Below the pieces are notes generated by a model. The model ran no database searches and was not told where the DNA came from. It worked only from the letters and a program-made list of their open reading frames with translations. The position numbers and the translations under genes are program-made. A DNA stretch of 64,000 nucleotides from Blastocystis sp. Blastoise (Eukaryota > Protista > Bigyra: Opalinata), in NCBI GenBank assembly GCA_039096225.1, contig JBBPEB010000004.1:496001-560000 (forward strand), written 5' to 3'. Below are positions 19,594 to 62,139 of this stretch, in pieces; the first letter of the stretch is position 1; the number at the start of each line of letters is the position of its first letter.

Positions 19594-22811
<3,218 letters not shown>

Positions 22812-41832: not shown

Positions 41833-42756
41833 TTATGCAGATTTAGGTTTTTGTTCAGGAGCGAAATATTTGTAAAGAGGATAACCAATAACAGCACAAA
41901 CACCAAGAATGAAAATAGCCCAAGCAAGCTACAGAAGATATAATATATATATTATATTATAAATTATATTATAAATTAATTGATTATATATAGAGTAATA
42001 GAAGCTTATAAATAAATATATATACATAAGTATTAGAAGTATAGATTTTGTATTGAGCTTCAGGAAGAATGGGAAGAGTACCCATAGAAGAAGAGAATCC
42101 ATTCTATATTATTATTATAATATTATTATTATCTGAGATATTATTATTATTATTATTATTAATAAATATTATCATATATAATTAATAAATAATATATATA
42201 ATAAATAAAAAAGAAACATTAAAAAAAGCATATATATACATAAGTGTGAGATTGTTCTTGTTCATCAACAGTAACATAAGAGAGTTGAGCACGAGCAGTT
42301 TCAAGATAACCAGATTGACGAGGAGTAGCAGTAATGTTCTTTTCAATGGAAGCACCACTAAAATAAATAGTATATAAATATAAATAAAAAAAAATTATAT
42401 GAATACATAATTAAATCATAAAAAAAGCATGAAAATAAAAATTATTATAAAAAATATTTACGCTTCTAATTCTTCAATGACAATAGGATAGACACCATCA
42501 TGATCGAAACCTTCAGTAGGCCATTGATCATTAATAGTTACATTATAAGCAGTAGCTTCACCAACGTTGTAAATGGAGTAAATAATAGTAAAAGGATGAT
42601 TTTCACCAATGTAGTTGGTAGCAGCATCAACGTTCTTGTTGAAGATAATCTTAGGTTCAGATTGAGCTAATACAACAGCTAAAAAGAGAGCAAAACATAA
42701 AGTTTTAAAGTTCAACAAATAAACATAAGTGTTTAGTAAATTACAATATATACCAT
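41833..42756 (-). CDS. SSR2: Translocon-associated protein beta
   Basis: Signal peptide, YSIYNVGEATAYNVTIND.W, TARAQLSY, SSSMG, single C-terminal TM; the start needs a non-canonical first intron. Confidence 0.85.
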
Positions 42757-43628
42757 TATGAATATAACACGAAACAAAGTGAAAAATAACAATATAAATA
42801 TTCTATAAATGAAATGAGTAACAAAAAATAAGACCAAAACTAATGTACAGTGATGGAGATCAATGGGTTTGATTATATATGGAATACATATACTTCGTCG
42901 ATCACTTTTCATTTAATTCATGAGATTATTTCTTGAACATTTCAGATTTTTATCTACTTCCGTTTTCTTCATAGTGACTCTGTTTCTTATTATAGAGTGT
43001 GCATACATTGAATAGAATCAAATATTTTTTTATATAAAGAAATGATATTCCAAGGAAAGACGGTAAACAGATATATAAGCAACAAATAGATTAACAAATT
43101 ATTGTATTGTTTCTTTTTATAATCTTAATATATTTGAATGGTATTGACCATTGTTTTATCGATTCGTAAAAATCGTTATCATGAATAATTGGAAACATAC
43201 ATGTTTATTTTTATCAATTAGTGAATCCTAAAAAGAAAAATAACTAGAAATAAGGTATAACTTCCCATTTAAAATAAAAATAAATGTGTAAAACATTGTA
43301 AATAAAGATGTATTTGTGAATATTACTTTTTTTTCTGTGAAAATTATTGTTTTTCCTCTCCTATCGATTTGATGGATATTATTATGCAGACACATATTTT
43401 TTATATGTCCTTGTATAACTAAAAAACGATTATATGCAAAAAAAATGAAATGTTTGTTGTCAATCATTCATAAATATTGTCTTCCTAAAGCTTTAAGCAT
43501 ACATAAAAAAAACAACTATTATTAAAAGTATACAAACATAATTTTAATTTCAATAATTAATATACCTTCGATTAATAAAATCGTTTTTAAAAATTTGCAA
43601 AAGAATTAAATTGTTTCTTATTTTTTAA

Positions 43629-46600
43629 ATGACTTATCTAAAAACGAATATAAAGGCAACAACAAGTTGTGATAATGTTCAGCCTCCAAGTTATAAGGGG
43701 AAAAGTGTTTTATTCACGGAGTCTATTCATGTTGATGGCGAAATGAAGAATTTTCTTCAAAAGAAACATTCTCGATCTACAAAAGCACAAAATGTTTCTT
43801 ATACTCTTGTTGCTACAACTACATTTGAAGGAATAGAAAGTCAAATATTTCAAGTCAATTTTTTACGAATTAACGAGTCAAATGTGTATTTTTATCTTTT
43901 ATAATCAACATTAAGAATCTCTTTATATAGTGTGTTGCATCTGGACATTAGTATATCCAAAAATAATGAAAAACAAATGTATTTATTTTAAAAATAAGTG
44001 ATTTCTCGATTATTCTTTAGAAAGGAAATGGTTATAGGATATTTACGAGACAAGACTTATAGTCCAAAGATCCGGGTTCAAAGAATCACAGATCCATCTC
44101 ATCCATGGTATGTATATTAATATTATTTTATATTATTGTTATGTTCTTATAAGAATCATTTTTCATTTATATATTATATATATTATATATATTATATTTA
44201 TACATGTTTGTACTTCCATAGTTTTCATGATGATATTTATGGGAATCCATCTTACGGTGTGTTTTGTAAGGATACTATATATGCAGGGGAAGTATTAGGT
44301 GTTATGAGTGGACAACTCTTCTTCTATTCCTCTTGGGAAAATATTTGCTGGATTGTATATATTTATAGGAATATATATTTATATTGTATATTATATTATT
44401 ATATTGTTTTGTATTCTATATATTTATTATATTATATATATTGTATTATATTCTATATATTGTATTATACTCATATTATTTTATATTTATTATATTATTT
44501 ACTATACTTATATTCTATTAATTTTATACAGTTTATGTTATATGTTTATAATCTGAAATATCGATATTATATTTTTTTTCTTATTCTTACTATTATAATA
44601 TATATATAACAAAATTCTTTTAAAATACTCCATTATTATGATTTTTACTTATTATTTCTTTCTTAGTTTCTTTGTATATACTCTATTTTTTAATTTTTCG
44701 TATTAAAGATGTTTGTATATAAATCAATCACTTTTTATTTTTCTATTTAATATATATATATATATATAGGATCTTTATCGTCAATATTATTCAATTGATA
44801 TAAAGAATAATAAACCAAGTATATATATATTTAATTATTTCTTTAACAAATATTATGTATTATAAGCATTATTACATTATATTCATATATTATATTATAT
44901 TCATAGACATACCTGCCCGCCGTTCCGGACCCGGCAAAGATTCGGAAGAAACATATTTATTGGATGGTGCATTCTATAGTATTTATATATATTTATATAT
45001 ATATATATATAATCAAAAACAATTATATATATAGAATAATTAATAAATTTATTTATATATATATATATCAAAAACAATTATATATATAGAATAATTAATA
45101 AATTTATATATATAATCAAAAACAATTATATATATAGAATAATTAATTTATTTATATATATATATCAAAAACAATTATATATATAGAATAATTAATAAAT
45201 TTATTTATATATATATAAATAGGGAATTTTGTGAGTTATATAAATGATTGTCACAGTGACTTACAACAATATATGACTGAACCAGTATATATAAATAGTT
45301 ATAGAATAATAATTAGTTTTAGTAAAAATATATTATTCTATATTTTTGTAGAGTGATATAATGAATATATTAATTGTCCTATATATATAAATAAATATAA
45401 TTTATGAATATATATTTCTTTTCTATCTCTTTATATATATCTATAGTCATATATATCTCCATATACACCTAATTGTGTTCTTGCCGAATGTTCTGTTCAC
45501 TCCATTCCCGTGGTTTTCTGTATAGCCACAAAGGACATAAATTGCGGGGAAGAACTCACTATTGAATATGAAATGGTATAAAAATATTGTTTCATATCAT
45601 TAAATTAATGAAATATAGTTATATATATATGTTATATATATATATGCTGTATTTTTCTAGAATTACTGGGATGCCCTAACAAGTCTTAAACAAACAGAAC
45701 TCAAAAACCAACTTCTCATGGTATATATATAAATATGAGTTTTTTCATAATTCTCTATTGTTATTATATATATATGTTTTATCGATACTTTTCTATTGTT
45801 ATTATATATATATATATATAGAAATTAACCGAAACCCCTGTTGTTCCTAATAAGGAAATAGAAGAAGAAATAAAAAGAAAACAAAACAAAGTATCTAATT
45901 TTAAACATTATATATATAGATTATATATAGTTAGAAGAATATAAACGATTAGCTAGCAAATATGAAGCTTCCATAAAGTATATATATATATACGATTAAA
46001 TAATATAAATAATAATATAAATAGTTTTCTATTATATTACTATATTTGACATTCTATATTTTATGATATATTATTGATAATTAAAAAGTGATTATTATTA
46101 TTATTATTATATATAAATTATAGATCCTCAATCAGTATATTAGAACAACAAAAAGAAGTATATATATATATTTTACAATTATTATTATTTATTTTGTATT
46201 CTATAAATATAGACTGCTCGTATGTATAAACTATCCATTCCCATTATTATTACTTTCTTTCCGTTTCTACAATTATTCATATTCTATTCTTCTCCACTTT
46301 AAAAGTTTTAATTATCTATATATTTATTATTCATTTCTTTTATTACCCATTTTTTCTCCTTTATATATATATATAAATCATAAACTTTATTTTTTTTACA
46401 TATCCTTATCTATATATATTTCTTATTCTCTTCTTTATTTTTTTATTTTCTATATTTTTTTTTCTTCTATATATTAATTCACTTCTCTCTCTATCTCTCT
46501 CTCTATTTCTATCTCTTTTTCTATCTCTCTCTCTATTTCTATCTCTCTCTCTATTTCTATCTATATATATATATATATATATATAGAGCGTATGGAAGCT

Positions 46601-48352
46601 ATGAAGGATAAAACATCAGAAGAATACCATCGACTTGAACAATTAAATAATAATATGCGTATTATATATTATATATATATATATTATATATTATATATTA
46701 TTTTTCTAAAGAATTTACATTATTCAAATCATTAACTATATATATATGCTAAATATTGTTGTTTAAAAAATAATATTTTTTTATATGCTGATTTAGTTAT
46801 TTACTATATATATGTCAGCCATCATTCTTTATCAAATATATATATATATATAGGTAATCAATTATTACATGAAACCATAGAATTAGATAAAATAAAAGAA
46901 GATCAGATTTATCATCGAAACCAACAAATCATTCAAAATCAAGATCCAGAAGCACGTGCTACATGTGCGTTTAATCCAGAGCATGTGATGCCACGTTCGT
47001 CATTAGAGAAACATCATAATAAATGTCCTGATGCTGATTGGACAATCTTTCAAAAGTGTCCGTATATATATATATAATATAATATATAATATATAATATA
47101 TATAATATATAATATATTATATTATATATTGATAATAATTACATATATAACTTTTAAATAATATAGTTTATATATATATATTATATATCACATTAATAAT
47201 ATTCTATTTATGTATTTTTTTGAATATAAATTTAACTATATAATGAATAATACTATATTATTATATATATATATAGTTATAACGATCTTCATATTATTCG
47301 AAAAACTGATTTGAATCATCATTTACAAACCTGTAATGATTATCAATTATATTTATTAAAGAAGAAACAGTATGATTTAGAAGAAGAAAATGATGAAATA
47401 GAAGAAGAAACACAAAAAGGTGAACTAGATAAAGAAGAAGGAGAAATAGATACAGAAGAAAAATATACTAATTTACTTAATAATAGTGATTCTACAATAA
47501 ATAGAGAATTAACAAATCAAAAAGATGATTTTAAAGAAAAGAAAAAAATAAATAAAAATAGTAATAATAACAATTATCTTAAAAAACAGTTAGAAATCGC
47601 ACGTTATGAAATTCAATCTTCTTATCCGTATATATATATATATATATAGTATTGTATATCAATAATATATTAATTTATATTATATATCAATAATAAATAT
47701 ATATATATAGATTATTAGATAACTTTACTGGTGATTATGCACGTACTTCTGTATATATATATTAAAGTCTTTTTTTTAACTCTATTAAAGACACTAAATA
47801 TATATATATATATATATTTATTATTATATATATGTTTTTAGATTATGAATAATTTATATATTTTGAATGAAATGATATACCCAATTGTCATTGATATATT
47901 ATGGGAAGAATATAAAGCAGATTTAGTTTCTATTATTGAGAAATTAGATACGGGTTGTAATTATTCAGAAGATTCAGCCATTTTCACCACTTTAGCTCTT
48001 ATTGAAACAAATAGATCCTTATTTGAAAAGTATATTTCATTTATATTTAGTCAATATCTTTATTGAATTATATAATTAATCAAAAATCAATTATCTTTTA
48101 TCTTTAAAATAAATACTATTCTATAATAGACGAGGATTCTTATTAAAACAAGAACTTAAGGAAACTATCAAAAAATTACGTTCCTTAAGAGCTTTACTTC
48201 CTGAATTCTGGAGTCCTTTAGACCCTATGCCAAATCCAGCTTATGTATTTAGAGATATCAAAGAAGTTATATCAAAACTTAACGTAATTGGAATTGATAT
48301 GCCACATTTCAGAGAACTAATCTGCTGTAGGGACTCCACAAGGAGAGTATAA
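43629..48352 (+). CDS. SET-domain protein with coiled coil and two CHHC (zf-U11-48K/GTSF1-type) zinc fingers
   Basis: One frame traced over about 19 GT-AG introns: ITDPSHP..YGVF..GEVLGVMSG, NFVSYINDC, PNC, ATKDINCGEELTIEYEMNYW; then CAFNPEHVMPRSSLEKHHNKC and CPYNDLHIIRKTDLNHHLQTC. Confidence 0.8.
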
Positions 48353-48694: not shown

Positions 48695-51600
48695 ATGACG
48701 GAGTCTATTGATTATCTCCATCATTTGATTCTTATTTCGAAAACTGCAGATGGTCTTTTTGAAATAGATGATACAAAACCTTGTGTAGGCTATTTTAGAA
48801 AGTTTATTATTGATATGTGCCATAAAATCAATCTAGTACTTCAGCAAGACTCTGTGTTTCAATATATGGGTTCTCAGATGAATCTATTATCTCTTTGGTC
48901 ACAGGATTATCAGTATGATGAATCCTCGCTTCAAAAATTTGTTGATATAACAAAACAGTATTATCAAGATCTTGTTCATCGCTCTGAGAAGCAAACTAAA
49001 TCCTATGTATGTTGTTCTTAATGAATCCTTACTTTTTTAAAAATAAGATCTGTTGTTTTTAACTATTTAAATGTATTACTTGTAGGCATTTCATTATTCT
49101 TTTTTGCCATAGTTGTTTATATAATATTTATTTAGTAATAGATTAATATATATATAGATATACGATATTGAGCAGACGATTATTGCGTTGCAGATGATTC
49201 TTATATGTGGTTATACAAAGAAAAATGCATTTGAGTTTTATCAATATTTATGTAATTCTATTGTATTCTGCGATATAATTGCAAAAAAAGTATTTCAAGA
49301 TGTTCCTACGACTGTTCATGATCAGTTACAAGTTATTTGCCATATTAATTATATAAAATCACAAGCTTATTTATTATTACCTTCGTCGTTATATGAATCT
49401 ATACAAATCAGTGATGAATTTACATTTGAAAATATAACTAAAGAAAATACATTTAGAAATCTTTTAACTAAGGAACATTGTAGTAATTATGTTGAAGATT
49501 CTTTATGTTTAAAAGAATTACAACATTATAAATATAAGATTATGAATAATTCTAGTCTTCCTTCTATAGTATTTCTTCGTGATGTTAAGAAAGTTTTAGA
49601 TATTGATACTCAACAATTTTTATTACAAACAAAAGATTTCTCAAAACATAATAGTATATCTTCTTTAGATCAAGATATTACAAATAATAACAATAATTTA
49701 GGATTAATAGAATCTGAGGAAGAAACTACTGTTGATCCTTATGCAAATGGAATTACGTTAGAAACACTTTTTAATACGAATTCATGTTCTTTATTAACTG
49801 ATATTGAGGCTATAAATATCTCAAATCCTGTATTTAATAAAAGTGATTCAATTTCTTCAAATACATTATTAGTATCTACATCGAATGTTATTCCTTTATC
49901 TTCATTATCATCTTCTTCTTCTTTCTCTAATGATACTTTTCATAAACTTCCTGAGCAACCAAAACAAATATTAATATCTACAATGAAAAATCCTATTCAT
50001 AGTTCTCTTCCTAATAATATATCTCCTTATCAAAATGAATCCATGCTATCTTCCTCTCTACCTTCTATAGCGTCTCCTTCTCCTACTACAACTAATAATC
50101 AACCTTCTTTACATAAACATAATGATTCTTATGAAAATTCTTCTATTTTTATTCATTCAGAAAGTCTACCTCCTTCTCCATCTATACATACTACTATACA
50201 TAAATCAGTCATTCTTAATAATATTAATGATAATAAAAATAATAAAAAGAATAACGATAATAATTATAATAATAATAATAATAAAAAGAATAACGATAAT
50301 AATTCTATGAATAATGATTCAATTTCTAATACAAGTATGTCTATAGAATATTCTTCTATTCCTCAATCAACTATTCATTTTTCTAAAGAAAATAATCATT
50401 CTTCATCTGATGATCCCAGTTTCTTTGAAAGCAGTGACAACTCCAGTAATAGTGATACTAGTGATACTAGTGATAATAATAGTGATAAGAATGACGAGGA
50501 TAGTGATGATGATAATGATGTATATGATATGAATGATAATCCATTTGAATGTATACCTCCTCCTCCACCTCCTCCTCCGTCTACTAGTACTGATAATAAT
50601 AATGATAATAATAATAATAAGAAAAATACAAAAGATAAGAAAAAACAAAAATCTGTTTCAAAAGATGATTCCAGTTCTGACGATGATAGTTATTCAGATG
50701 ATAGTTATTCAGATGATAGTTATTCTGATGATAGTTATTCTGATGATAGTTATTATGATAGTTATTCTGATGATAGTTATTCTGATAGTAGCAGTGAAAG
50801 TGAAAATGATAAAGATAATAAACATAAGTCTATATCTAATACAAAGAAGAGTAATAAATCAAAATCAACATCTAAGAAAGATATTATAGATAATAGTGAA
50901 GATTCTGATTCTTTTGATTATGATAATGAATCTCGTTTCTTTGAAGACGCTCCTCCTCCTCCTCCTCCACCTCCTCCTTCTCTTAATGTTCCTTCTGTTC
51001 CTACTAAGAATGATATTAATTTTAATAATGATAATAATAATACCATGAAAAAGAATAAGGAGAAGATTACTTCTCATAATAAAGAGTTATTATCAACAGA
51101 TACTGATACTTCATCAAATGATTCAAGTGATAGTGATAATAGCGATCATGATAATAATAGTGATGATAGTGATAATAATAGTGATTATAGTAACAGTTAT
51201 ACTAATGATAAAGAAGATTCTAATTCAGATGATGTATATGATATGAATGATAATCCATTTGAATGTATACCTCCTCCTCCTCCACCTCCTCCACCTTGTT
51301 CTTCTTCTAAGGATTCTATGAAGAAATCAACAACTAATGAAGATACAATCAATAATTCAATTTTATCGAAAGAACATCAAGTAGAACTAAATAATAATCA
51401 ATCACAATCAAGTTGTAAGAAAATTGATTCTATTCAAGAAATATCTATTTCTTCAAATACTTCTTTAGATAACTTGGATTCTAAAGAAACTACTAGCGAT
51501 GATTCTAATGAAGAAAGTGATTCTGATAATAGTTATGATTCTATTGTTCAACACGCATATGATGATATAAATGAAACTAGTGATGATGATAATGATGTAT

Positions 51601-54425
51601 ATGATATGAATGATAATCCATTTGAATGTATACCTCCTCCTCCTCCACCTCCTCCTCCATCTACTAGTACTGATAATATTATTAATAATAATAATATTGA
51701 CGATAATAATAATATTAATAATAATAATAATATTGACGATAATAATAATAGTAATAATAATATTAACGATAATAATAATAATACCATTCCTCTTCCTCCA
51801 CCTCCTGCTACTAATAAAACAATTAATAATAATTCTAATGATTCACAATTATTATCGAATGATTCTACTTCAATAGATACTAATAATTCTACATCTTTAT
51901 CTTCATCACAAGTTGATAATATACCTAATAGTAATATACATAATAATATATTATTATCTTCGTCTTCTGTATATTCACAATCATCAATAAATAGTTCTGT
52001 AGAAACAGGACAACAGATCAAAGAAGAAGAAATAGTTCTTAAAAAGTCAGTTTCTGAAAGAGAAGAAAAGAAAAAACATCGTAAACATCATCATAATGAA
52101 AAAGAAGATATTACTATTTCTAAAGAAAACGATATTCCATTAGCTTCTCCTACTACTCCTATTGACAATAGTAAATCTTCTATAAAAGAAGAGAAGAAAG
52201 AAAAGAAAGTTAAAAAATTGAAATTTAATTCTAAAAAAGCTCCTAAAGAAGTAAAAGTATCTAAAGTTGAATATAATATGAATGATTTATTAGAAACAAT
52301 AGGACCACAAGAATTAATGGGTGTAGATTTATCTGCTTCATTCTTAAGTAATATTAATGAAGATGGTGCATTTACTGAATATCAAAATGAACAAAAGAAA
52401 ATACTATTAGAAAAAGAAAAAAAGAAAATAGAAGAAGAACAAAAGAAACGAGAAGAAGAAAAAAAGAAACGAGAATCATTACCTAATTCACATGAATCTA
52501 TTGCTTCTACATCTCATCATACAGTCTCTTCATTAGTATCATCTTATAATAATGAACAATCTTCAAATACATCATTACGTGATTCTTTAAATAGTAGGCA
52601 TTCAACAAATTCAATTCATAGTAATTATCAAGAATCACAAAATATCAATTATTATACAAATCCCATACCTATTCCTTCTCAAGAAATAATATCAGATACA
52701 CTTTCTACTACTTCATCTCATAGTATCACTCATCAATCATCATCAAATCATTCTACTATTCCTGCTGCAATTCCTATTCAACCACAAGGTATACCTATTC
52801 AACAACAAGGTGTGTCTATACAACAACAAGCAATACCGATTCAACCACAAGGTATTCCCATACAATCTAATCCTATTCAACAAACAATACCTATTGGCAT
52901 ATCAACAAATAATCCTATTCAACAAACGATACCTATTGGTATATCAACAAATAATCCTATCCAATCTACATTATCTTCTAAGTTACCTCAAAGAAATTCT
53001 ATTTCAAATCAAACAATTTCAAATACTAATAATCAATCTAATTCTTATAATAATCATATTCCTTTAGCTGTTCCACTTACTACTACTTCTTCTTCTACTA
53101 CTAATAATACATCATCTTCAATATATCATAAATCAACAGGAAGTATGCAAGCTATACCTGTACAAACGATGAATTCTCATATGACTTCTTTATCATCAAA
53201 TCAAATTCCTAAAGAATCAATATCTACTGCTATTCCTATTCATTCTCATGAAGGATCTTTTGAAATCAATACTATTCAAAATCAAAATTATATGAGTGAT
53301 ACAAATTCATTAAAGAGATTATCTATTGAAAAACCTTCTTCCTCTTCAATAGAATATGGTATTCCAATTCAACCACAATCAACAACAACAACAAAAAGAC
53401 CTCTTCCTACTACTATTCCTTCTATTCCTGTATTTATTAATAATAATACTATTAATCCTCATGAATATCAACAAAATACATATATAAATAATCCTATGTC
53501 TTCTCCTCCACCTATGTATTCAAATAGCCAATCAAATAATGAATATTCCTCTTATAATAATAATATTCCTGCTCAACCTTATTCATCTTCAACTATACCT
53601 TCTATTCCTTCATATACATCATCAATCAATAGAAATCAAATTCAATCAACATCAAATAATAATTCTAATTATATGTCTTATTATCAAACATCGTCTACTA
53701 TGACTAATCCTCCTTATAATCAACACTATTCTACAGGAAATACAACTATGAATCCACAATATACTACTAATCTATCTCAACCTAATTATTCTAATCAATC
53801 AAATAATACTATTAATATGAATATTGTCAATCCATATGGAAATGATAATTCAAATTATTCTGGAATATCTTTACAAAATAATATTATTATGAATGCTACT
53901 ATTCCTGTAGACCGCTCTTTTTTTGATAATATATCATATCAAGTATTATATATATATATATATATATATTACTTTTTGTTTTTCATACTTTAATATTTCT
54001 CTTTTCTTTTTTATAGTGATATATATGTAATATTTTTTTTTTATTATATGTTTATAGACTATAAATGTTTATATATAGACTCTTTTACAATCAATTCAAG
54101 AAATTCACAACTATTGTGAATCTATTCGTTATTCAAACCCTCAAAATGCACGTGCAGCTCTAACTAAAGCTGTACAATTTGTGGATTGTGTTTGCTATGG
54201 TATATATATAGAATAATATACATTTTAGTTTTTAATAATTTTTATTCTTTTCTTTTCTACAAATTAATAAATTATTATATATGTATCTATTTATTTATAC
54301 ATATCTATTAATATATATATATAGCAACTTGTTATAATACTCAAGAAGAACAGCAATTACTTATTGAACAATCTTCAATGAGAACTTTATATAAAGCGAT
54401 AGGAAAAGAAATGAAACGAAAGTAA
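48695..54425 (+). CDS. Giant Vta1-like protein with very long low-complexity linker
   Basis: 4 exons (one of 4.8 kb). N-terminal helical region resembles Vta1 MIT (PCVGYF, NSIVFCDII..VF, NYIKSQA); C-terminal SIRYSNPQNARAALTKAV resembles the Vta1 VSL motif. The gene is solid; the family call is tentative. Confidence 0.5.
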
Positions 54426-57828: not shown

Positions 57829-60408
57829 TTTAGCTACTATTCTATATGTATTTGTCTATATTTATTTTTATATAAACATATATAGTGTAAGAATACATTA
57901 TTCTTTCTTGAGTACTCAATGAAATTTATGTTATTTGTTTCTGGTACTACTATCTCTCCTATAGTATATAATGTTATTATTATTATATCATTTTTTATAT
58001 TTATATGTATATATTATTATACATAAAACTATATATATATATACATATATGTTATTATATACGTTTAACAAACAATTTAGAATACTATATCTATTATATC
58101 TATTTATAAATAGATCATTTTTCCCGTGATTCTTCTTATACTTTCACCTTTAGAATTAATATACTTAAGTAGAAAATAAATGCCTTAAAATGAGATTAAT
58201 TACTCTTAATTATTGTATTCTTCAACTAATTAATATATACATATATAATAAAAAGAATAGATAGAAATGAAGACTAATGAAATGAGAGAGTTTTATTTAT
58301 ATCGAGGAATGTGTTGAATGTTTCAGTATATATATATTCATTTATTAATCTTTATTTATATCTATTTATATCTATTTAAATATATTTATATTTATTTATG
58401 TCTATTTATATCTATTTATATTTATTTATATTTATTTATATTTATTTATATTTATTTATATTTATTTATATTTATTTATATTTATTTATATTTATTTATA
58501 TTTATTTATATCTGTTTATATTTATATATATGTTTATATTTATTTATATTTATTTATATATCTATTTATATTTATTTATATCTATTTATATCTATTTATA
58601 TTTATTTATATCTATTTATATTTATTTATATCTATTTAAATATATTTATATAGATTAAATAGATATATAATTATTGTAATTCTTTTCTCTACTACTATTA
58701 CTCTTTCTCTTAATCAGTAGCCTGTTTTAAAAAGATAATATATACAATGGAGAATGAACAATATATACGTATATGTACATATAGGTTATATACATGGATT
58801 ATATATATATAGGTTATATAATAAATGTTATATATATATATAAATCTATCCTAAATTAAAATAATCAACTAGTATTTATTAACTCATTCTTATTATAAGT
58901 AATTATATTATATTGTTGTTTTTATATTTACTTTTTATTATATATATATCTTTTTATTATTATAATATTAATAAATTATTTTATTTATTCTCTTTGTATA
59001 ATATATAATAGTTAATAATCTTTTAGTTTTTATAATCTTTTTTAAATGAAAATAATTGAAAATAAAGCTTGTATATATATATTTATAATATTTTTAGAAA
59101 ATATTTTTATTTATTGAAAATAACCTTAAAACCATTTAATTAAGCTTTTTAAAAGCTAATTTTACACTTATTCATCTCTACAAGTGTATTGCTATTAAAA
59201 GAAAACATAAATATAATAAAATATTTTATCTCAGTATTTGTTAATCAGTTTGATAAAAGTTCGTTATTTGTATATATTTTGACTCAAAACGACTCACTGA
59301 CAATCAATCAACACTACAACGTCAATAAAGCTCATAAGTAAAACAAATATGAAAGTAATTGCCTTCAAGAATGGAAGTTTTTTACACCAGTAACCTTAAA
59401 ACCATTGTCAGAGTACAATTTATATATTTATAAACAACCATATTACACAAGCATTAATATATACATTTTTCTTAACTTCAAAGTGAAGTTTTACTAAAAA
59501 TATTACAGAGTCGAAATAACCCCTGGATTTTAGTACTTTTCTTATATATAAAAAAATTCATACAAATTCATATTCAGGGCCATGCTTATTCTTTTTTCAA
59601 GAAAACACTTACAAAAATCTTTATATTTATTAATATTTATAAAGTTGGTTGTTTTCTTTAAAATGGTATTTTTTTTCATTCCCTATATATCTATTATTCT
59701 ATAGCTTGTATATATAACTCAAATTATTCAAAAATAAGCACAGATTCTCTTCGTGATTATAAATATAGCTTCTTCTATAACGATCAGCTGACCAGAAATA
59801 ACTTGATTTCAAAGGTAACCTCTCTTGTTGTTCTGCTTCAAGGAAATGCGATTCTCCATGAGCTCTTAAACTGTATGTATTTATTTATCCTTTTATTTAT
59901 TACATTTCTATAATTATATTTTTATAGGTTCCTTATATGAGTAGAAAACAAAGTCCCTCGGTCAAAATTAAATAATAGTTTTTTATATTTTACTTTATTT
60001 AATTGTTTATTCTTTTATTTTTTTGTATTTTGTTATTTTTATTGTTTTTTATGCTTAAACAACTAAAATATGTATTAAAAGAAGACAAAGAAATAATGTG
60101 TTTAAAACAGTCTAAAATAATCCTAATGAAAGTCTAAAATGTAAAATAGATGTTGTTATGGACATTTTTATCTTATATATATCAACAGTAAATACAACCA
60201 CTGTCATTATGGAATACCAAAAAAAAACATTAAAAATAAGTCGTAGTCATAAAAAGATACATGGCCCGTCACTATAGGAATACAAAACCCACCATAAGTT
60301 TATACCAGGAAAAGTCCTGTATATACCAGAAAATCACTTTTTTTATACCAAAAAACAGCTAGGGTGCATACCAGAATTTTCACGATTTTAAAAAGCTGCC
60401 CACCAGTG
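55007..60408. mobile_element. CACTA/EnSpm (CMC)-like DNA transposon, 5402 bp, probably non-autonomous
   Basis: Perfect 19-bp TIRs CACTGGTGGGCAGCTTTTT (55007-55025 and 60390-60408), TTT TSD (55004-55006 and 60409-60411), clustered subterminal TATACCA motifs at both ends. Confidence 0.9.
55741..58770 (+). pseudogene. Decayed multi-exon gene inside the element (transposase candidate, unproven)
   Basis: Host-style GT-AG exon/intron alternation; the frame carries across the first junctions but has many in-frame stops. Confidence 0.55.
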
Positions 60409-60867
60409 TTTAATAACATAAAATTCTTGACAAGGAATTTGCTTAACATTAAGATGAGGAAGAGAAACAATGATCTTTTCTCCATCTTGTTTATATTCAA
60501 CAGGTTTATCAGATCCCATTAAAGACATTTTTGTATTTTCAGTGAGTTGAGGAGAAGAAAGAGTAACAGTATTATCTTCAGGCCATTCAGTAAGAATAGC
60601 ATAAACAGCACTTAAATCCTTACGTTCAGTGAAATATACTTTCTTATCTTCATCTTGAACTCTCCAAGGAATACTCTTATAAATAGCTTCACCATTGACT
60701 TTCATCCAATCACCAAGTTGTATTAAACGTTCTTGCATCAATGGCATTATACGACCATCAGCAGTAGGTCCAATGTTTAGTAACTATAATTAAATATGTT
60801 TTAAAAACTATTATATATATATATGAAAGATTTCTTAAGATGTATTTTAGTATATAATAATAATAAT

Positions 60868-60898
<31 letters not shown>

Positions 60899-62139
60899 GT
60901 TAATAATAATAATAATATATACAAGATTACCACCATAAGCAACAGTAGGAATAAAAGTAGATAATAATTCTCGAAGTGAAAAATATTTATCTACATAGAA
61001 ATCTTCAGTTCTATCATATCCCCAACAGTCCTTTTGAATAGTCATAGCACTTTCCCATTTATGAGGTAATAAATGACCCGGTTCATAACGATCGGGACCA
61101 CTATAAAATCCACCATGTTTTTCACTACAATCAGCACCCCAACGATCATTTACAACTACTGTATCTTTTACAGGTGATTCATTATATATATATATATATA
61201 TAGAATGAAATATAAATATAATAGTAATTAGTATATATTTATAATAACCATAATAATATATATATATAATAATAAACATAACCATAAACATAAATGTAAG
61301 CATAATAAATATAATATACAGCCAAGCTAATAATTCTGGTGATTTCCAATAACTATCTAAAGCTTCCCAACCACCATCAGCCCATAAAACATCAGGTTTA
61401 TATTTATTGACTAATTCTTTAACCATGGGAATATAATGTTTATCAACATATTCTTGAGTTTGAAATCCATTATCTTTATCTTATAAATATAAAGGATTAA
61501 ACCATTCAAATAAACTATGATAAGCCCAAAAGTCATATTATGTCTTCGAACAGCATCAGCTAGTTCTCCAAGAAGATCTCTATGAGGACCAATATCTTGA
61601 GAATTCCAATTCCATGAATATTTACTTGGCCACAAAGTAAAACCTTCATGATGTTTTGAAGTTAAAACAACATATTTTGCACCTATATTTATCGAAAAAT
61701 ATATATATATAACAAGATAGAGAAGAATACAAGAATATACCAGACTTTTCAAATACATCAGCCCAATGATCAGGATCGTACATCTCAGCTGTAAATTGAT
61801 TAGCAAGATCTTGGAATTTTACTTTTTCTCCATATGTTTTTTTATAGAAATCAACAAATTCTTGTTCTCCATCAACTAAACGTCTCCTATACATATTTAA
61901 ATAATAAATTACATATAAAAATAACATTTCAATCAATCAAGAAAATAATCAACAAGAAAAAATAAAACTTACCAGTACCATTCACTCTTGAATGCAGGAA
62001 CAGAAAATACACTCCAATGAATGAAAATACCTAATTTAGCTTCATCAAACCAGGAAGGAAGAGGACGACTATCAACAGATTCCCAAGTGGGATCATAAGC
62101 AAGAGCTAATACAGCGAACAACAGAAACACAAATTTCAT
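60388..62139 (-). CDS. FUCA: Alpha-L-fucosidase GH29, C-terminus altered by the transposon
   Basis: Signal peptide, [50 protein letters not shown] nucleophile motif, [31 protein letters not shown]. Confidence 0.97.

Follow-up and report, generated by a model that had tools for sequence, protein, structure and literature searches.

A Blastocystis gene joining a SET methyltransferase domain to tandem GTSF1-like CHHC fingers

One locus of Blastocystis sp. Blastoise, from tortoise gut, raised the question of whether a SET lysine methyltransferase domain and a tandem pair of CHHC fingers are encoded together in a single gene, and what such a protein might do. This gene, here called the SET-finger gene, lies on contig JBBPEB010000004.1 (assembly GCA_039096225.1) within positions 496,001 to 560,000 of the forward strand; that whole 64,000-nucleotide (nt) stretch is referred to as the window, and coordinates below are window positions. 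The SET domain and the tandem fingers were found in a single reading frame, with splicing observed across its middle. The architecture is apparently an undescribed arrangement of known parts, seen in two lineages and of narrow range. Full-text literature searches (subscription journals lay outside their coverage) found no description of a SET-CHHC fusion, in agreement with a preliminary description of the locus, which had known of none.

The 18-exon model (Table 1) has a coding sequence of 2088 nt with a single stop, and its 695-amino-acid (aa) translation showed zero differences from KAK8813233.1, recorded as 'hypothetical protein WA158_002825'. The preliminary description had seen one spliced frame with a SET domain, a coiled coil, two fingers about 10 aa apart, an acidic patch and a tail, and this frame was recovered exactly. 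The KAK8813233.1 record was found with the finger exon as query, formed a cluster of its own (n = 1) and carried both Pfam tags (SET and zf-U11-48K) in its precomputed data. GC content was 18-23% across the region, with TA-rich introns. All 17 introns of the gene began with GTAT, ended with TAG, contained 79-94% AT and belonged to the GT-AG class; the Blastocystis polyadenylation motif was present on the sense strand in 0 of the 17. A 48-nt cassette within intron 1 was absent from the NCBI model and may be a missed or an alternative exon; the length of contig X1, described below, is compatible with either form. Exon models that combined this cassette with a different donor contained many stops and were dropped.

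Merged genes are a documented annotation error in Blastocystis (PMC10690189). The likeliest break point between two genes would be exon 12 and intron 12, after which a later Met could begin a finger-only gene. Exon 13 was matched by contigs in two of four sequencing runs (X1 and X2), from two studies; the other two runs (X3 and X4) gave no match, which is no proof of absence. In both contigs the 30 letters upstream of exon 13 were exon 11 plus exon 12, and the downstream letters were exon 14. Contig X1 is 2188 nt long, with 1059 nt before exon 13 (1006 in the model) and 1129 nt from exon 13 on (1082 in the model); the 53 and 47 nt left for untranslated ends are remainders rather than measured ends. 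It carries 0.45 of the sampled words, against 0.43 expected for the exons of the SET-finger gene and the next gene. The RNA origin of X1 is a guess, X1 could itself be the source of the annotation, and its SET exons were placed by length, the joins upstream of exon 11 not being read directly. Contig X2, from the second study, is 416 nt long, has a polyA and two differences in 75, and by the model reaches only as far as exon 9, short of the SET exons. That the annotation merged two neighbouring genes is nevertheless very improbable, given that two studies show in-frame joins over introns 11-13, that one contig has the length of the full mRNA and that a second protein (P0045, below) holds both parts in a single frame. 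Within intron 12 itself, a U12-like donor, ATATCCTT, stands at position 46400 (+) immediately after AC; it may be chance or a nested splice signal.

The fingers matched the zf-U11-48K family (PF05253) over two stretches (38.3 bits against a cut-off of 21.1, E 1e-9), passing the hidden Markov model for the family. Both have the pattern C-x5-H-x9-H-x3-C and are separated by a linker of 10 aa; linkers measured 8-12 aa in all 43 two-finger rows out of 51 finger-bearing rows (near-duplicates included). According to PMC2562017, U11-48K and TRM13 have one finger each and GTSF proteins have two, the GTSF family was known at that time from ciliates and animals, and an additional globular domain occurs in TRM13 only among the CHHC families. 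GTSF1 was the best solved match to the protein (E 8e-4), and the best named finger match was a protein of the ciliate Blepharisma. The finger exon gave E 7e-4 against GTSF1, versus E 0.26 for finger 1 against the 48K finger. The tandem likeness to GTSF1 proposed in the preliminary description therefore held, whereas the likeness of finger 1 to SNRNP48, and with it the suggested link to minor introns, proved weak. On sequence grounds, the finger module is GTSF-like in being tandem and is not of the SNRNP48 or TRM13 type, but it does not qualify as GTSF1 when all the family's features are considered, because the basic residues and Trp residues of GTSF1 are mostly lost. In addition, fingers are the only globular domain in the GTSF family, and here a SET domain and a helical tail are present.

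The SET domain was called by Pfam (PF00856) at aa 126-261 with 33.6 bits (cut-off 22.4, E 5e-8), and the top fold match was SET8 (Z 11.0, root-mean-square deviation 2.8, 127 aligned; Foldseek E 1e-7). Core SET residues G127, G145, D195, N207, N229, E256, Y261, Y265 and W266 were retained; we take Y261 to be the catalytic Tyr of ELxxxY and N207 to be the Asn that binds S-adenosylmethionine (SAM). The preliminary description had read the Asn-His (NH) motif as Asn-Asp (ND) and had doubted activity on that account. The reading was confirmed at aa 207-208, but 12 of the 13 aligned relatives (two of the 13 being nearly identical) also have D here, and by alignment ND is a normal trait of a protist SET subfamily, not a defect; the residues lost are others, considered below. 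Some active SET enzymes are without NH. The ND-type subfamily profile was closest among solved structures to G9a/GLP (E 3.5e-18), and a profile built from 11 other members gave 131 bits for the SET-finger protein (P0001 in the comparisons, identical to KAK8813233.1). The ND-type relatives (P0003, P0016, P0025, P0027, P0032, P0033, P0039, P0042 and P0044) have no pre-/post-SET, and some have ankyrin repeats like G9a. An H-P motif ahead of the domain and a Y-G-x-x-Y-W end, often then a helix, characterize this subfamily, which is coherent and, with no literature search aimed at it, apparently unstudied. P0027 (ENA) contains an ND-type SET C-half, a coil and a different Cys/His finger near its end, possibly a third SET-coil-finger arrangement.

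Searching 1.84 billion representatives with HMMER returned 49 matches at E 0.001 or below: P0001 itself, 11 to the SET region, 36 to the finger region and one, P0045, spanning both. P0045 (289 aa, from Logan contigs, in a cluster of 8, eukaryote-like) reads in one frame without interruption from a SET C-half through a coil and two fingers to an acidic patch, and resembles a single exon from a larger gene. Its SET part was not called by Pfam; it scored 42 bits on the profile from the 11 other SET matches (E 1e-14, in a three-sequence search). The alignment of P0045 with P0001 had z 11.1, and the coils of the two did not align (z -0.5). P0011 (Logan, cluster of 7) lacks a SET domain, carries a helical tail behind its two fingers, and may be an exon fragment. 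The finger tree, built like the SET-half tree without near-duplicate cluster members, placed it as the sister of P0001 (93/93, long branch). Neither tree, both of them poorly resolved, paired P0045 with P0001 as sisters, and a joint P0001+P0045 SET clade was not rejected by the approximately unbiased (AU) test (p 0.21); the trees would fit either one or two fusion events. The SET-finger gene probably arose when a gene for an ND-type SET protein was joined to one encoding fingers plus tail, as in P0011. Word-based searches returned the query protein only, as one of 7 candidates with the finger exon, one of 2986 with P0045 and one of 6112 with alignment A3. JGI metagenomes yielded no DNA context for P0045 or P0011, and prokaryote genomes none for the alignment. 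Atlas searches gave SET clusters only, under 0.9, PADLOC gave nothing, and NCBIfam gave nothing relevant.

The remaining parts of the protein are a predicted helix ahead of the fingers, and an acidic patch and a helical tail behind them. The structure model had a mean predicted local distance difference test (pLDDT) score of 56.6. The tail (aa 559-674) aligned with that of P0011 at a shuffle z of 5.1 (0 of 500). The P0011 model (pLDDT 53.8) matched GTSF1 at Z 8.4, and about 15 of its ranks 2-22 were HEPN-type by title or recall, at Z 5.3-6.8, below the bar for helical bundles. Foldseek matches for this HEPN lead were weak, and a fold search with the low-confidence tail of P0001 itself gave no HEPN rows. 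The Rx4-6H catalytic motif of HEPN domains (PMC3710099) was absent in both tails. Judged from these models, the tail is possibly an inactive HEPN-like bundle.

Table 1. Window positions of the SET-finger gene and its parts.
Feature	Position	Strand	Remarks
SET-finger gene	43629..48352	+	18 exons, 695 aa; KAK8813233.1 (WA158_002825); ATG at 43629, stop ends at 48352
Exons 1-9	43629-43885, 44021-44107, 44222-44354, 44770-44818, 44907-44978, 45223-45284, 45447-45575, 45661-45720, 45822-45890	+	
Exons 10-18	45931-45977, 46124-46157, 46213-46219, 46587-46658, 46854-47061, 47277-47627, 47711-47750, 47842-48029, 48130-48352	+	
SET domain, about aa 100-270 (exons 2-8)	44061..45681	+	ND-type protist subfamily; Pfam, fold, alignment
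Predicted helix of 96 residues (aa 293-388; exons 9-14), probably a coiled-coil spacer	45849..46939	+	Model pLDDT about 72-83 over aa 301-370
7-nt micro-exon (exon 12)	46213..46219	+	Precedes 367-nt intron 12; contiguous with exons 11 and 13 in two studies' contigs
CHHC finger 1, aa 397-417	46964..47026	+	Pfam, pattern
CHHC finger 2, aa 428-448	47057..47334	+	Split by intron 14
Acidic patch, about aa 462-490, without Trp	47374..47460	+	Sequence
Helical tail, aa 559-695	47748..48352	+	Low-confidence model; weak match to P0011 tail
Possible extra in-frame 48-nt exon (16 aa, before SET domain)	43931-43978	+	Inside intron 1; AG/GT flanks, no stop

The best explanation, though held tentatively and short of probable, is a lysine methyltransferase tethered to RNA, acting most probably in small-RNA silencing. 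It is preferred because one transcript carries both modules, the core SET residues are kept and the subfamily profile is nearest G9a/GLP; because tandem fingers define the GTSF group and GTSF1 was the best solved match; because a second SET-coil-finger-acidic protein exists in P0045 and its cluster of 8; and because Paramecium Gtsf1 co-purifies with the Piwi protein Ptiwi09 and the SET complex PRC2-Ezl1 (PMC11724296, PMC11602119), while the Blastoise proteome contains Piwi, PAZ, RNase III, Pre-SET and chromo domains. The counts for this strain (PMC10690189, supplement file 7) are 2 CHHC, 1 TRM13, 2 Piwi, 3 PAZ, 2 RNase III, 2 Pre-SET, 5 chromo and 14 SET proteins. The small-RNA link suggested in the preliminary description thus gains from the Piwi/PAZ and RNase III entries and loses from the absence of known PIWI-binding residues. 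In nematodes, the published partner of GTSF-1 is an RNA-dependent RNA polymerase (RdRP) instead of PIWI, so that the Paramecium and nematode cases provide precedents for a finger-SET link and for a change of partner. Literature searches found no paper on Blastocystis RNA interference. Mechanistically, the fingers would coordinate zinc and attach to structured RNA or to an RNA-loaded Argonaute complex, and the predicted helix of about 14 nm would hold the SET domain away from the RNA. With SAM and Tyr261, the SET domain would then methylate a nearby lysine, by profile likeness a site like lysine 9 of histone H3 (H3K9).

Several observations weigh against an RNA-tethered methyltransferase in silencing. 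Within the SET domain, M143 takes the place of the YxG Tyr, which is Tyr in eight of nine relatives having a residue there, and R210H and G262E alter positions occupied by Arg in 11 of 13 and Gly in 12 of 13 relatives. By this alignment, loss of the YxG Tyr and of two other conserved residues is the real warning sign for SET activity. In G9a or EZH2, loss of the YxG Tyr shifts the methylation level and does not always abolish activity; by analogy with those mutants, the change here might widen the lysine pocket and alter the methylation level rather than kill activity. The protein has no Cys-rich pre-SET or post-SET (no Pfam matches, no cysteine clusters) and, with SET8 ranked first in the fold search, its substrate would not be fixed by family. 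A crude motif scan of the protein found no clear nuclear localisation signal. Among the fingers, GTSF1 residues R26, R29, K36 and K39 (PMC9385479) align to P406, S409, K416 and D419, one of four basic residues being kept, with other basic residues near the aligned finger 1 positions. No Trp was present between aa 423 and 579, and there was no counterpart of the PIWI-binding W98, W107 and W112 of GTSF1 (PMC9385479). The strain's domain counts in supplement file 7 of PMC10690189 contained 0 RdRP, one of its two Piwi-domain proteins had an AGO-like signature, and a GTSF1-containing testis activity left AGO2 unaffected (PMC9385479). In the counts for the other two tortoise strains, each lists 1 CHHC and 1 TRM13, so no orthologue is evident.

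The three altered SET residues would also suit a pseudo-enzyme or lysine reader within a protein that serves as an RNA-binding scaffold, the fusion being perhaps a lineage-specific shuffle with little functional coupling. No orthologue in word-based searches or sister-strain domain counts, and the fingers and tail of P0011 without a SET domain (though perhaps an exon fragment), point the same way, but Tyr261, N207 and the YW lid have been preserved, the score on the 11-member subfamily profile is high at 131 bits, and P0045 is a second fusion; this remains a serious but somewhat unlikely alternative. Rather less likely is an active enzyme with non-histone substrates, whose fingers bind tRNA or another ribonucleoprotein (RNP) and whose SET domain has as its methylation target a protein of translation, the ribosome or RNA processing. 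The subfamily profile nearest G9a/GLP and the published work of tandem-finger proteins in small-RNA pathways argue against such an enzyme, which is favoured by the lack of pre-/post-SET and, in the Pfam scan, of any chromatin-reader domain, by the absent PIWI-binding residues, by the partner switch of nematode GTSF-1 and by the proposal that the CHHC finger of TRM13 binds tRNA (PMC2562017).

A divergent 48K subunit of the lineage's minor spliceosome, to which a SET domain was added, is improbable. Blastocystis retains U12 introns and a 48K gene, named AV274_6003 in subtype ST1 (PMC5608401; see also PMC10639083), and with 2 CHHC and 1 TRM13 listed for the strain, the SET-finger protein is probably the only other CHHC protein detected; the E value of 0.26 for finger 1 is a further point in favour. 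However, 48K has one finger and this protein two (PMC2562017), PDB searches up to E 10 matched no longer 48K chain, the domain counts are leaky and missed 48K in ST3 and ST4 too, and the gene's own introns are all GT-AG. Returning to the RNA-tethered methyltransferase, a wider form of it would unite a GTSF1-type RNA module with a G9a-like methyltransferase, possibly by two independent fusions in protists, and would link Argonaute-bound or nascent RNA directly to histone methylation without PIWI; an inactive HEPN-like tail would offer a further surface for RNA. This extension is speculative and unlikely.

The preliminary description had also placed the gene in a window with many AT-AC introns and a mutated transposon, neither of which was confirmed. 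Canonical U12 donors, the only donors counted, were not enriched (10 seen against 16.9 +/- 4.3 expected, in 15 simulations), and three of 14 ATATCCT sites resembled AT-AC intron starts by eye. Candidate AT-AC minor introns were noted at 22145 (+), 25686 (-) and 36519 (-), the first of these in a C2/copine gene region with a branch-point-like sequence ahead of its AC end. Transposon families were matched by 0 of 68 open reading frames (ORFs) scanned in the window (28 longer and 40 shorter); the sole retro-like ORF match scored best as Pfam Asp_protease, the DDI1-type family. Rfam gave 0 matches in the window. Neighbouring genes with Pfam matches were of housekeeping type. A TRAP-beta gene divergent from the SET-finger gene lies at 42290-42802 (-), and pieces of an alpha-L-fucosidase gene lie at 60391-61818 (-; Pfam). 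The downstream gene (48695-53993, +) has a 1611-aa low-complexity exon with repeated acidic and poly-proline blocks and no Pfam match. In a eukaryote, little can be read from gene neighbourhood.

The narrow known range and an enzyme that may be weak or dead lower the significance of the fusion. Even so, descriptions of GTSF1-type fingers have so far concerned small stand-alone cofactors from animals and ciliates, with a link to histone methyltransferases seen between separate proteins only, and a natural fusion makes that link testable with a single purified protein. The fusion also extends the tandem finger to a stramenopile and points to the apparently unstudied ND-type SET subfamily in protists.

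Compared with known systems, the protein shares two CHHC fingers with GTSF1/Asterix (PDB 6x46, 9nhb; Paramecium Gtsf1), the best sequence and fold match among solved structures, but its fingers lie within a 695-aa chain, after a SET domain, with one of four basic residues and no PIWI-binding Trps. With G9a/GLP (EHMT2/1) and SET8 it shares the SET fold, the catalytic Tyr and the Y/F-W lid; it differs in having ND instead of NH, Met for the YxG Tyr, no pre-/post-SET cysteines, no ankyrin repeats and fused RNA-type fingers. The ND-type protist SET proteins (Vitrella CEM02036.1; ankyrin-SET P0025, P0032, P0033 and P0042) share the D at the NH position, the H-P motif and the Y-G-x-x-Y-W end, but 0 of the 11 SET-only matches have CHHC fingers, and P0001 has lost three residues that they retain. 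SNRNP48 and TRM13 belong to the same finger family (PF05253), and TRM13 also couples a CHHC finger to a methyltransferase. Each has one finger, however, and the TRM13 enzyme is a classical-fold RNA methyltransferase, listed as a separate protein in this proteome; neither its CCCH finger nor its methyltransferase domain was found by Pfam in the SET-finger protein. The Paramecium Gtsf1-Ptiwi09-PRC2(Ezl1) complex, in its published description, also links a tandem-CHHC module to a SET methyltransferase, there through separate proteins and PIWI, and here in one chain with a SET domain that is not E(z)-type by profile.

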